DNA from: a virus
Virus record (IMG/VR): IMGVR_UViG_3300001533_001295
Coordinates: 1-64,000 of that record
Strand: one strand, 5' to 3'
Length of the DNA stretch: 64,000 nt
Shown: positions 34,101 to 37,076 of the stretch, piece by piece
Layout of the letters: the number at the start of each line of letters is the position of its first letter
How positions within the stretch are numbered: position 1 is the first letter of the stretch
Position numbers and translations under genes: made by a program
The notes under the pieces: model-generated
The model's database searches: none
What the model saw: the letters and a program-made list of their open reading frames with translations, nothing else
Told to the model about the DNA's origin: nothing

Positions 34101-34496
34101 ATGTATCTACTAAAATTAATAGTAATTTTAGTTTTATCAGTAGATACATCTATCTCTAGTACCGATAACTACAGGCGTATGGAAGCGGACAAGCCTGTAG
34201 CCGGTCTGTATACTATGCTGGTCAACCGCAGGCACAGCCACAATTTACCTGAGTTAAGATACTGCGCTGACTTAAGCTCTGAGTGTTATTTTAATAACCA
34301 GTTTCAAAGGCGTTACGGCTTAGGTGAGTACACTCGTCAAACCGGTTGCTTCGTGGCAAATGACGGCATGTTCGCTATAAATGTCTTTAGCAAATTATTT
34401 AGCGAGGGACCTGGCTACTATCTAACACTTAACACAAATATAACTAAATTTGGTGCGCACTATGATGGGCATTTTTGGACCGTAATATTCGAGTAG
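34101..34496 (+). CDS. Secreted CAP/SCP-like domain protein
   Basis: Signal peptide; NRRHSHNLPELRYCADLS and LNTNITKFG...FWTVIF resemble the CAP domain. Confidence 0.5.
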   Translation: MYLLKLIVILVLSVDTSISSTDNYRRMEADKPVAGLYTMLVNRRHSHNLPELRYCADLSSECYFNNQFQRRYGLGEYTRQTGCFVANDGMFAINVFSKLFSEGPGYYLTLNTNITKFGAHYDGHFWTVIFE

Positions 34497-34505
34497 GAGC
34501 GGGAC

Positions 34506-34703
34506 TTGTCTGACAAACCTTCATTTGAGTTAAATCAAAGAGTCGAGGTAAATCACTACGGTTTGGGAACTATATCAGAAGTCACTAACAGATTTCATCC
34601 GAAGTACGGTTACGGCTATTTAGTCAATTTGGACAAAAAACAAAAATCTAAACTAAAGTTACTAGCTTGGTTCTACGAAGACGAGATAAAAGCAGCCGAG
34701 TAA
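34506..34703 (+). CDS. Small SH3-like hypothetical protein
   Basis: FELNQRV...GTI...YLVNLD...FYEDEI pattern; RBS aggag. Confidence 0.6.
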   Translation: MSDKPSFELNQRVEVNHYGLGTISEVTNRFHPKYGYGYLVNLDKKQKSKLKLLAWFYEDEIKAAE

Positions 34704-34742
34704 TGTAAGCCTCTGTAGCTCAGCGGATAGAGCAGCGGCCTT

Positions 34743-35348
34743 TAAGTAGTGGGAGCCTTTATGTGGAAGATCGAGAAGATAGTTAGCAAAGGAGATTACA
34801 ATTACTACGTTGTGCGCAATCATCCAAGCTGTACCAAGCATGGCTATGTATTGCATCATAGAGTAGTAGTGGAAAATCACCTTGGCAGGCTTCTTGATCC
34901 GACTGAAGTTGTGCATCACCTAAACGGTGATAAGAAAGATAATCGTGTAGATAACTTGCGTGTTATGGATGAAGCAGATCACGCAAGAGTTCATGGGTAT
35001 GAACAGGGTGCTCGTTTTGTGGAGCTAAAATGTCCGAGCTGCGGTGTGTTATTTCATCGGCCGCGACGACAAACACATTTAGTAAAACCTACAAAATATG
35101 CTACTTGCTCATCCTCATGTCGAGGAAAGTTCTCACGTGAAATTCAACTTCATGGACTAACACATAAAGTGGAGGAGGCTATATCGGAGAATATCGTAAG
35201 AGAGTACACGAAGTATTCACACGACAACTCCGAGCAAACCATTTAACTATGGGATGCGTAGAGACTACACGCCTCCAGCCTGAAATGGCTAAGATATAGT
35301 CCAGCCAGCAAGCCTTTATCGGTGGTCATGGAAACATGATGCTGGAAG
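34743..35348 (+). mobile_element. Group I intron in tRNA-Arg(UCU), between positions 34 and 35
   Basis: 5' exon ends in U, intron ends in G; P7 elements gtagagactaca and aagatatagtcc; P4 tcggag/ctccga. Confidence 0.88.
34749..35246 (+). CDS. Intron-encoded HNH homing endonuclease (likely start ATG 34761)
   Basis: YVLHHRVVVE...VVHHLNGDKKDNRVDNL, then CPSC...CSSSC zinc finger. Confidence 0.9.
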   Translation: MGAFMWKIEKIVSKGDYNYYVVRNHPSCTKHGYVLHHRVVVENHLGRLLDPTEVVHHLNGDKKDNRVDNLRVMDEADHARVHGYEQGARFVELKCPSCGVLFHRPRRQTHLVKPTKYATCSSSCRGKFSREIQLHGLTHKVEEAISENIVREYTKYSHDNSEQTI

Positions 35349-35418
35349 CTAAGCCGTCGGTCGGGGGTTCGAATCCCTCCAGAGGTATTTTCAGTAGTAT
35401 TGCAAAGGAGTGAAAAAT

Positions 35419-35538
35419 ATGAAGAATATTGCATGGTTTATAGTCCAGTGGGTATTAGGTATGCTGCTCAGCTTACCTATAGCCGCCATAATCTTGTGGC
35501 TGCTAGGCGTGCTTAAAATAGAACTAATTATCCACTAA
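35419..35538 (+). CDS. 39-aa membrane peptide (not in ORF track)
   Basis: RBS aaaggag; MKNIAWFIVQWVLGMLLSLPIAAIILWLLGVLKIELIIH. Confidence 0.6.
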   Translation: MKNIAWFIVQWVLGMLLSLPIAAIILWLLGVLKIELIIH

Positions 35539-35579
35539 CAGTTGGGACCGTAGCTCAAAGGTTAGAGCAGGAAACTCAT

Positions 35580-36356
35580 CAGTGTTGACTCTTGTGTTCT
35601 TGGTTATGGTGTACTTTACTAAGTAACTAAGAACCATCGAAAGAAGTCGGATGTCGAAATCCAAAAGTAAGGTGAGAATGTTGAATGGGTATAGAGTTAT
35701 CTACGACCCAACTCATCCAAAAGCTATGACCAGTGAAAATTGGAACGGATATGTGTACGAACATGTAGCTGTTGCTCAAAATTCACTAGGAAGAAGCTTA
35801 GAAAGTGATGAAGTAGTTCATCACTTAGATGGGAACCGCGAGAACAACAGGTCTTCGAATCTGCTTGTTTTGGAGCGGAGTCAGCATGCAAAACTTCACA
35901 GATGGATGGAGACAAATGGTGCCTTTACATTGAAAGATGTAAATGAGAATGGGGTGAATTCAGGGAAACCTAAATCTATTTCGACATGTAAAGTTTGTGG
36001 AAAAACTCTACAAGCAAAGCAAAAAGGTGCTTGCTCACTTAAATGCAAGCGTATCCTTTCCAGGAAGGTTGAAAGACCGGACAGGCCGACGCTAGAAATC
36101 GACATGCAAAATCTATCAATGGTAGCAATTGGTAGTAAGTATGGAGTTTCAGATAATGCGATCAGGAAGTGGATAAAATCTTACGAAATAGACACGGCAA
36201 TCCTGAGCCAAGCTTCTGGTACACCAGAAGAAGGTGCAGAGACTAGCGGAGAGGTAAAGTCCTCTTAATTACCGCCTAGAGCGCCCCACACCCAAACGAG
36301 TAATGTCGTGGGTGGTGAGATAGTCCAGGGAGAAAATGAAAATTTTCACAAACCAG
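35580..36356 (+). mobile_element. Group I intron (IC3/trnL-like core) in CAU tRNA, between positions 36 and 37
   Basis: aattcagggaaac (P), aatcctgagccaag (Q), ggtgcagagactag (R), gagatagtcc (S); terminal G. Confidence 0.9.
35651..36268 (+). CDS. Intron-encoded HNH homing endonuclease with zinc finger and HTH
   Basis: YVYEHVAVA...VVHHLDGNRENNRSSNL; CKVC..CSLKC; IGSKYGVSDNAIRKW. Confidence 0.9.
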   Translation: MSKSKSKVRMLNGYRVIYDPTHPKAMTSENWNGYVYEHVAVAQNSLGRSLESDEVVHHLDGNRENNRSSNLLVLERSQHAKLHRWMETNGAFTLKDVNENGVNSGKPKSISTCKVCGKTLQAKQKGACSLKCKRILSRKVERPDRPTLEIDMQNLSMVAIGSKYGVSDNAIRKWIKSYEIDTAILSQASGTPEEGAETSGEVKSS

Positions 36357-36437
36357 AATTTCTTGGTTGCGGGTTCGAATCCTGCCGGTCCTATTTTAGT
36401 CATTATCTTAGTTTTAAACTTTAACTAGGTTTATACC

Positions 36438-37076
36438 ATGTTTAGTCTATTAGCGGTCATGTGTGTGAATGACTTAATCTTTAGTAAAATTGAGCCAGTT
36501 ACTAATAGATTTGGTTCAGGTACTTTTTATTCGGACGTAATGAATTATGCTTCAAATCCATACGTCCGGGATATAAGGTCTACCAACGCGCACGAGACAA
36601 CGCATGGTATAAACTCGTCACTAAGAAACAGATTCAGGAGCGTTTATCCTCATAAGATAAACGCTTTTTTTGTTGGTAGAGGGGAGTACGTAGTACTCGC
36701 CGAACCTAACATCAGGTTGAGAGATGTAGCGCAATTTGTTCCGGCGGCTCTAAGAGGTCGCCGTTTTAATTTGTACTTCGTGCAACAAGTTAGGCACTGG
36801 GACGATACGCCTTTATATGTGTTAGACGAGTTCGTTTGTTACATAAACGGAGGTAAGGTATGCGTAGACGATCTGTTAAATAATCGGTACAGACAAGAGA
36901 ACACAGACGGCGTGTCTGGTTGTTTAGAGTTTGCCATATACTCTATGGCTTTGGTGAAGTGTATAGAGATTAGAGATCCAGGTTACTTTGAGCGAGAGAA
37001 AAATTTCCTACCATTTATTAACCACTTAATATTTGAGGCAGGTCTTACGTTTTATAAAGGAAGTCAGTTTAGGTAG
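36438..37076 (+). CDS. HExxH metalloprotease-like protein
   Basis: AHETTHGIN and downstream LDEF; frame stays open 47 codons past the TAG. Confidence 0.6.
   Translation: MFSLLAVMCVNDLIFSKIEPVTNRFGSGTFYSDVMNYASNPYVRDIRSTNAHETTHGINSSLRNRFRSVYPHKINAFFVGRGEYVVLAEPNIRLRDVAQFVPAALRGRRFNLYFVQQVRHWDDTPLYVLDEFVCYINGGKVCVDDLLNNRYRQENTDGVSGCLEFAIYSMALVKCIEIRDPGYFEREKNFLPFINHLIFEAGLTFYKGSQFR

Follow-up and report, generated by a model that had tools for sequence, protein, structure and literature searches.

A phage tRNA-Arg(UCU) gene split within the anticodon by a group I intron with an HNH endonuclease gene

A stretch of DNA of 64,000 nucleotides (here called the window), positions 1 to 64,000 of IMG/VR virus record IMGVR_UViG_3300001533_001295, was analyzed; the record comprises 84,772 bases and its completeness is estimated at 42%. 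For 34709-35387 of the window, on the plus strand, our preferred reading, with a probability of about 0.88, is that an uncultured freshwater phage has here a functional tRNA-Arg(UCU) gene whose U34 and C35 are separated by a mobile group I intron. Sequence comparison leads us to regard the group I intron and its HNH homing-endonuclease gene as genuine, and the split tRNA is very probably functional. An earlier reading of the same DNA, made from the letters alone and referred to below as the original prediction, had proposed such an arrangement.

The split gene, its ribozyme and its reading frame

As read directly from the sequence, the 5' half of the tRNA (34709-34742) ends in CTT and the 3' half (35349-35387) begins with CTAA, and the insertion point lies between U34 and C35, inside the anticodon. 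The base preceding 34743 is U (34742) and the last base of the insert is G (35348), just as the original prediction had stated. When ARAGORN was run on the unmodified window with introns allowed, it returned tRNA-Arg [34709,35387] (tct) i(35,606), i.e. an intron at 34743-35348, with bounds identical to those proposed before. After removal of 34743-35348 by script, ARAGORN recognized the joined halves as a 73-nt tRNA-Arg(tct) with the anticodon loop CTTCTAA; the predicted cloverleaf, with its loop divided into CUU and CUAA, was reproduced. Not a single tRNA of any kind was called, with introns allowed, in 20 block-shuffled copies of the window (1.28 Mb). Default ARAGORN found only tRNA-Asn and tRNA-Leu(taa) in the window, and Rfam at its gathering threshold found the same two tRNAs and one downstream group I intron, with nothing at the tRNA-Arg locus. 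Both standard searches missed the split gene, as had been anticipated. Two of the four tRNA genes found in the window are split.

Arginine identity elements in Escherichia coli are A20, C35, and a discriminator base that is A or G. In the tRNA described here, an A follows GG in the D loop, C35 is the first base of the 3' exon, and 12 of the 14 copies listed have A as discriminator, the other 2 G. CCA is not encoded at the 3' end of the gene. The parts of the gene, of the intron, and of the open reading frame (ORF) within it are as follows.

34709-34742 (+): 5' exon of tRNA-Arg(UCU), from sequence and ARAGORN; in 14 relatives, pairing is 100% in the acceptor, D, and anticodon stems
34709-34715 (+): acceptor 5' strand, with the D arm, the anticodon stem 5' strand (34735-34739), and C32-U33-U34 (34740-34742) completing the 5' exon
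34743-35348 (+): group I intron, 606 nt, U before it and G as its last base
34751-34755 (+): GGGAG, Shine-Dalgarno-like site of the HNH gene; its GAG (34753-34755) is the internal guide
34757-34765 (+): P2 5' strand, containing the HNH-gene ATG (34761-34763)
34761-35246 (+): HNH homing-endonuclease ORF, 161 amino acids, HNH_3 domain and CxxC...CxxxC motif; stop codon 35244-35246 in the P6 loop
35161-35169 (+): P2 3' strand, 9 bp with 34757-34765, closing off the ORF insertion
35174-35179 with 35271-35276 (+): P3, enclosing P4, P5, P5a, and P6
35184-35189 with 35228-35233 (+): P4
35194-35197 with 35221-35224 (+): P5
35202-35207 with 35213-35218 (+): P5a
35234-35235 and 35239-35242 with 35249-35252 and 35256-35257 (+): P6
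35263-35267 with 35297-35301 (+): P7 pseudoknot, R and S consensus elements
35277-35280 with 35287-35290 (+): P8, between the P7 strands
35305-35309 with 35341-35345 (+): P9
35326-35339 (+): P9a, hairpin with GAAA loop; the intron end is AAG, with terminal G 35348
35349-35387 (+): 3' exon of tRNA-Arg(UCU), beginning C35-U36-A37-A38, then anticodon stem 3' strand 35353-35357
35363-35379 (+): T arm, preceded by the variable loop and followed by the acceptor 3' strand (35380-35386) and discriminator A (35387)

The Rfam model Intron_gpI (RF00028) matched 35135-35322 with 30.4 bits (E 2.6e-5 in a 2.3-kb search and E 2.4e-7 in a search of the phage's own genome). The covariance model thus found the predicted group I core, but with a score below its gathering cut-off of 50. 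In part, the low score arises because the model cannot span the ~390-nt ORF between the P2 strands, so that its P1/P2 part was misaligned. The R and S elements named in the original prediction align to the consensus at 35258-35273 and 35291-35303, and the conserved elements J6/7-P7 and J8/7-P7' fit it well. Helix coordinates were placed by reading the sequence along the Rfam alignment. Exon C32-U33-U34 can pair with guide GAG 34753-34755 to give a P1 of 3 bp, in which U.G marks the splice site. When 35161-35348 was folded without constraints, P3, P4, P5, P5a, P6, P8, P9, and P9a were returned. Its energy was -61.6 kcal/mol versus a shuffle mean of -40.5 (z -5.9), and none of 200 shuffles was as stable.

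The intron indeed encodes an HNH protein, as proposed: Pfam assigned residues 32-76 to HNH_3 (PF13392) with 46.1 bits against a cut-off of 24.8 (E 3.7e-12), and eleven PHROG HNH families matched the ORF (best E 1.5e-17). His52, His53, Asn61, Asn65, His74, and His78 are invariant in 15 homologues, as are the four cysteines of the CxxC...CxxxC unit. The conserved N terminus MW.I..K places the start at ATG 34761 and not at an upstream GTG. GGAG lies 5 nt upstream of this ATG and includes the guide GAG. At the other end of the gene, the last 86 nt (from 35161; the last 28 codons) double as P2', P3, P4, P5, P5a, and P6. Toward the C terminus, the conserved peptide motifs are encoded by the J3/4-P4 and P5'-P4'-P6 sequences, so that RNA rather than protein may account for their conservation. 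A phmmer search of solved structures with the HNH protein returned nothing at E up to 1. A profile search of the same structures picked up zinc fingers (best E 3.4e-6) and, through the HNH motif alone, I-HmuI with a marginal E of 0.49. No maturase-type domain was found; Pfam gave HNH_3 alone.

Distribution and covariation

With the HNH protein as query, 80 loci were kept from IMG/VR and 80 from a scan of one genome per prokaryotic species. Eighteen of the IMG/VR loci (L006-L023) match nearly the whole protein with 51-63% identity. All but one of these 18 have the same order of parts, namely a tRNA 5' half ending in CTT, the ORF, a group I core ending in G, and CTAA followed by the 3' half; the 17 copies lie on 17 different contigs of 24.6 to 242 kb. 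Three of the 80 prokaryotic loci, all on contigs of metagenome-assembled genomes (MAGs) and from three phyla, also carry a split tRNA-Arg(UCU):

L086: 1.31-Mb contig, Blastocatellia MAG
L087: 96-kb contig, Clostridia MAG
L088: 58.6-kb contig, Anaerolineae MAG, ORF truncated

Judged from these contigs, the split tRNA-Arg(UCU) with its HNH intron is not a one-off. The original prediction had called a phage tRNA intron with a homing endonuclease rare; this is true of the printed literature but not of the sequence data. No close relative of the HNH protein was found by tblastn in 50,697 GenBank phage records. The best match there (H9), with 41% identity over 77% of the protein, is free-standing, upstream of tRNA-His and tRNA-Trp, and not intronic. 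Because the family occurs in both viral and bacterial MAG contigs, the distribution suggests that phages may carry tRNA introns between bacteria.

ARAGORN with introns allowed detected 15 of the 17 IMG/VR copies, missing L010 and L017. Six were labeled Arg(tct), and nine had bounds 1-3 nt off and were labeled Ser(gct) (three), Gln(ttg) (two), or "Stop"(tta) (four). When the bounds were set by the U before the intron (U-1) and its terminal G, all 12 distinct IMG/VR copies gave tRNA-Arg(tct). Together with the native ARAGORN call in the window, this agrees with the proposed split within the anticodon at U34/C35. Each of the 14 distinct copies has exon CTT, guide GAG, and the intron-final G.

Covariation was assessed in two alignments, one of the ribozyme core with 12 sequences and one of whole split genes with 14 sequences, in which the tRNA stems were added. 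Near-duplicates (L008, L015, L018, and L021-L023, of L007, L014, L016, and L020) were left out of both, and L011, which lacks a group I core, was dropped. Neither the 14-sequence alignment nor the P2 count includes L088, with its truncated ORF and 409-nt intron; the 14-sequence count also excludes P5a and the first P9 hairpin. In the 12-sequence core, 92.0% of cells were paired versus 76.6% in shuffled controls and 37-42% with slid partners, 34 of 55 pairs had changed on both sides, and the covariation score was reached by none of 500 shuffles. The length-variable hairpins align poorly there, the two halves of P5a being 51% and 83% paired and the first P9 hairpin 28%.

Across the 14 distinct copies, 98.8% of 864 pair cells were paired (shuffled, 78.3%; slid partners, 33-43%), and 39 of 62 pairs had changed on both sides. 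The covariation score was 0.639 versus 0.206, and 0.639 was reached in none of 500 shuffles. All four tRNA stems were 100% paired. In the acceptor stem, whose strands lie ~640 nt apart, 7 of 7 pairs had changed on both sides, and in the anticodon stem 4 of 5. Pairing of the core helices was 98.8% for P3, 100% for P4, 98.2% for P5, 100% and 90.4% (inner) for P6, 98.6% for P7, 100% for P8, 97.1% for P9, and 100% for P9a. Every counted core helix has both-side changes, among them 4 of 6 pairs in P3, 3 of 4 in P8, and 5 of 5 in P9a. As the structure was derived from the window sequence, the percentages of pairing are somewhat favored by construction, which does not hold for the both-side changes. 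The co-variation of the exons across a 600-nt insert would be hard to explain unless the halves join in one functional tRNA. The compensatory changes in the core, the U-1 and terminal G, and the sub-threshold Rfam match all argue for the group I assignment made in the original prediction.

P2 was counted in register by script, MAFFT having moved the guide region by one column. In 14 copies, 113 of 126 cells were paired; this count was reached in none of 1000 permutations of the partners, which averaged 74 and at most attained 94. A control in which the 3' strand was shuffled and any register allowed was discarded as uninformative: the A/T-rich strands gave a mean of 5-7 bp and a maximum of 9-12 bp.

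Several other arrangements were observed in the relatives. Locus L011, on the same contig as L005, has the HNH gene without a group I core. At ~1150-2100 of L005/L011, this close HNH homologue is flanked by the 5' half of a tRNA and by a 3' end whose acceptor and T arm match it; enclosed within is an anticodon stem-loop of the Arg(UCU) type together with a T arm, apparently a rearranged or nested tRNA arrangement. In L004 (257-964), a tRNA-Leu(UAA) is split at 34/35 (CTT, an insert ending in G, AAAA) by another group I intron with a different HNH-like ORF, which ends before P3; the contig also has a copy of the tRNA-Arg intron. Rfam matches above cut-off in the tRNA clusters of relatives were a permuted transfer-messenger RNA in L013 (353-676, 83.6 bits), a drum RNA in L017 (2244-2353, 69 bits), and a skipping-rope RNA in L020 (2121-2201, 49.7 bits).

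Proposed mechanism and rival explanations

The precursor RNA would fold into a group I ribozyme in which exon CUU pairs with guide GAG as the 3-bp P1, U.G marking the cut site, the ~390-nt ORF insertion is shut off by P2, and P3-P9 make up the catalytic core. Free guanosine would cut after U34, terminal G 35348 would replace it, and the exons would be joined. The predicted ligated product has the loop CUUCUAA and would read AGA, the commonest arginine codon of the phage. When relatives co-infect, the 161-residue HNH_3 endonuclease would presumably nick or cut those of their tRNA-Arg(UCU) genes that lack the intron, and repair would copy the intron in (homing). Since the guide is part of the ribosome-binding site, P2 holds the start codon, and the P2'-P6 core is made of the final 28 codons, a ribosome and the folded ribozyme should exclude each other on one molecule, and translation should compete with splicing. 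We infer self-splicing, the activity and target of the nuclease, and this competition from the sequence.

Natural variants bear on mobility. Free-standing HNH homologues, 48-51% identical, lie beside intact tRNA-Arg(tct) genes in L024, L025, L026, and L027. An apparent D-arm remnant was noticed ~100 nt upstream of the HNH ORF in L024. DNA contigs of four public metagenome runs (X1-X4), two of them possible sources of the record, were aligned to 34300-36700. A 297-nt contig of run X4 (lake water, 2025) comprises 35407-35579 followed by 36357-36460, with one mismatch. The intron of the neighboring CAU tRNA gene, described below, is absent from this contig at its exact U-1/terminal-G bounds, 35580-36356. 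A contig of run X3 skips 35581-35915, the HNH part of the ORF of the same neighboring intron. These variants, an intron-less allele and an ORF deletion, document gain, decay, and loss of homing elements in one lake phage lineage. Several other joints were not counted: a joint of 34741 to 35349 with an extra C (X1 and X2; shorter side 26 letters) and loose ends before 35349 resemble the intact tRNA-Arg genes of other organisms, and joints of 34733 to 36365 come from unrelated tRNAs matching the D and T arms.

A number of observations weigh against the reading as a working gene with a mobile intron. The Rfam score lies below the cut-off, and so do those of the relatives' introns (27-47.8 bits, all < 50). 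P1 has only 3 bp and is invariant, so it lacks covariation support, and in our own reading of the relatives' sequences P10 is weak, with 1-4 bp. A relative's contig in run X4 (depth 13.5) lacks one G at 34884 of the HNH ORF, a deletion that shifts the frame before the HNH motif and may reflect endonuclease decay in that relative. An intron-less tRNA-Arg allele of this phage, with 34742 joined to 35349, was not seen in the four runs. No RNA run containing this stretch was found in a search of public sequencing runs, a result that says nothing either way. Assignment to a phage depends on the IMG/VR record together with a few matches to phage families (UvsX-like recombinase, ribonucleotide reductase), and the record is estimated to be only 42% complete.

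Could the gene be a relic, killed when an HNH element landed in it, with no splicing and with the phage relying on host tRNA-Arg? The sub-threshold Rfam score and the 1-nt deletion at 34884 in a relative would agree with this, which we nevertheless consider very unlikely. The acceptor stem and the anticodon stem (7 of 7 and 4 of 5 pairs changed on both sides) are fully paired in 14 copies, the core shows compensatory changes and 97-100% pairing in all helices but the inner part of P6, and AGA is the commonest arginine codon. Among copies that share no more than 52-64% identity in their HNH proteins, a dead gene would not keep such constraints. Splicing at another junction, which would yield a tRNA with another anticodon, is brought to mind by ARAGORN, whose intron bounds were off by 1-3 nt, with other anticodon labels, for 9 of the 15 relatives detected. 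However, only the junction formed by CTT, an insert ending in G, and CTAA has U-1 and a terminal G in every copy, these bounds give Arg(tct) in each of the 12 distinct copies, and guide GAG pairs with CUU in 14 of 14, making a different junction extremely improbable.

That the intron is genuine but not autonomous, needing a protein helper for efficient splicing (the HNH protein as maturase, or a host factor), strikes us as unlikely. The 3-bp P1 and weak P10 would fit a need for help, and the ~390-nt P2 insertion and the passage of the ORF through P3-P6 could hinder folding. On the other hand, the anticodon stem is intact here and the Pfam search revealed no maturase-type domain; the small tRNA introns of Azoarcus and Anabaena reportedly self-splice with a 3-bp P1, the anticodon stem helping exon alignment. 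We also think it unlikely that homing to this site has never been, or has ceased to be, the role of the HNH gene, which would then be a passenger or domesticated nuclease in a vertically inherited intron. This would accord with the failure to see an intron-less tRNA-Arg allele in this phage population and with C-terminal motif conservation imposed by the ribozyme sequence. It sits poorly with the invariant His, Asn, and Cys residues, with the same ORF-intron pair at one site in tRNAs differing at all 7 acceptor pairs, with its occurrence on viral contigs of such different sizes and on MAG contigs of three phyla, and with the free-standing homologues that adjoin intact tRNA-Arg(tct) genes; such a scattered distribution, always at the same site, is what homing usually produces.

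A wider idea is tentative, and we hold it to be possible but doubtful: phage tRNA clusters might be an overlooked, large home for mobile group I introns. In this family, the guide within the ribosome-binding site, the start codon held in P2, and the final 28 codons within the core would act as an inbuilt switch, so that each transcript would either be spliced, giving tRNA, or be translated, giving nuclease. The nuclease would cut the intron-less tRNA-Arg(UCU) genes of competitors, and possibly that of the host, with the carrier protected by its intron, and the element would be weapon and parasite in one.

Genomic context and relation to known systems

The original prediction had described one split tRNA. 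Its account of the tRNA-Arg intron held, but it has to be corrected in that the neighboring CAU tRNA is split likewise. Its exons, 35544-35579 and 36357-36393, are separated by 777 nt of group I intron (35580-36356; 68.8 bits in Rfam), with a 205-residue HNH_3 ORF at 35651-36268 that runs through the core. With U-1/terminal-G bounds, ARAGORN assigned the anticodon CAU; in its intron mode, it called 35543-36394 as Leu(caa), with other bounds. Because ATA is the commonest isoleucine codon (249 of 526), the CAU tRNA may be an AUA-reading Ile2 tRNA. In the 17 ORFs of at least 300 residues used for codon counts, AGA (162) is the commonest arginine codon and AGG follows with 113, together 275 of 507, and TTA and ATA are the commonest leucine and isoleucine codons. 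The tRNAs of the window (Asn, Leu(UAA), Arg(UCU), and CAU) fit a codon-supplement set.

A segment of the second intron core (36192-36296) matches 8 GenBank records of crAss-like phages with 75-82% identity, in stretches annotated as "HNH endonuclease" or "hypothetical protein" or left unannotated, which suggests that those records may contain unannotated group I introns. A crAss-like affiliation of the present phage was considered and dropped: the blastn matches span only ~100 nt of the neighboring intron core, and PHROGs gave few matches for 8 large ORFs. A 646-residue ORF at 38417-40357 matches the ribonucleotide reductase small subunit only in residues 378-642; its N-terminal half has weaker matches to other reductase and PhoH-like families and may represent a fusion or an insertion.

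Because standard tRNA finders and Rfam thresholds miss the split tRNA-Arg gene, phage tRNA inventories and analyses of codon supply are incomplete. The overlap of guide and ribosome-binding site, and that of ORF and ribozyme core, make the intron a compact system for asking how one RNA can be both enzyme and message.

In its anticodon-loop site, U-1, terminal G, and short P1, the intron is like bacterial tRNA introns, and it may resemble IC3 tRNA introns such as those of Azoarcus and Anabaena (3-bp P1, anticodon-loop site, compact core). A cyanobacterial intron comes close in another respect: the tRNA-fMet intron of Synechocystis PCC 6803 reportedly encodes I-Ssp6803I, which is said not to belong to the HNH family. 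Like the present element it would be an anticodon-loop group I intron with an endonuclease aimed at the anticodon region of the tRNA gene; it is said to differ in its cyanobacterial host, its tRNA, its site, and its non-HNH endonuclease.

According to the text of Williams 2020 (bioRxiv 10.1101/2020.01.27.920355), the classical tRNA intron classes are Leu(UAA) at 34/35, Arg(CCU), fMet, and Ile(CAU), all of subgroup IC3. That survey extended the settings to 21, 17 of them new, in bacterial and archaeal assemblies, remarked that introns above ~400 bp may hold protein genes, and leaves phages unmentioned in its text. The Leu(UAA) intron ("Leu.3Ug" in its nomenclature) shares with ours the 34/35 position and the exon end CUU, and by analogy ours would be named "Arg.3Ug". 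Unlike the bacterial tRNA introns as presented in the text of that survey, the present element has a full HNH ORF interleaved with the ribozyme and lies in a phage. A paper on Thiomargarita nelsonii (PMC4853749, citing MacGregor et al. 2013a) mentions a putative group I intron in a bacterial tRNA-Arg (TCT), to which its authors assign neither a structure nor a type. As described there, it resembles ours in tRNA species, putative group I nature, and having been missed by annotation; by the same description, the interrupted gene is bacterial and comprises only ~324 bases (79335..79658), too short for an endonuclease ORF.

Phage-borne group I introns with HNH-family endonucleases are known from I-HmuI (PDB 1u3e) and from I-PfoP3I, an HNH-type enzyme which, as stated in PMC3428280, is encoded in an intron of the DNA polymerase gene of cyanophage Pf-WMP3. 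Both introns reside in protein-coding genes, whereas the present one resides in a tRNA gene. According to the passages on introns in a 2014 review (PMC3984707), every phage intron recognized by that time lay in a protein-coding gene, although phages have many tRNA genes, and Yutin et al. 2021 (PMC7886860) reported dense group I introns in protein genes of crAss-like phages. In the main text of Devoto et al. 2019 (PMC6784885), "enigmatic" introns are noted in tRNAs of Lak megaphages, none having been reported before to those authors' knowledge. They too lie in phage tRNA genes, and one may encode a tRNA; that text mentions neither an intron type nor an endonuclease gene, whereas the present intron is clearly group I and has an HNH gene. 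No description of a group I intron in a phage tRNA gene was found in the open-access articles searched (Table S6 of PMC6784885 and the Williams supplements may bear on this).

The element is a variant of the bacterial anticodon-loop group I introns of tRNA genes, one of which is known to carry an endonuclease. New are its phage setting, the interleaving of the HNH gene with the ribozyme, and its absence from the open-access literature searched. A published generalization, in the wording of the 2014 review (PMC3984707), confines phage introns to protein genes; the element extends the bacterial tRNA-intron family to phages and to a copy with an HNH gene.

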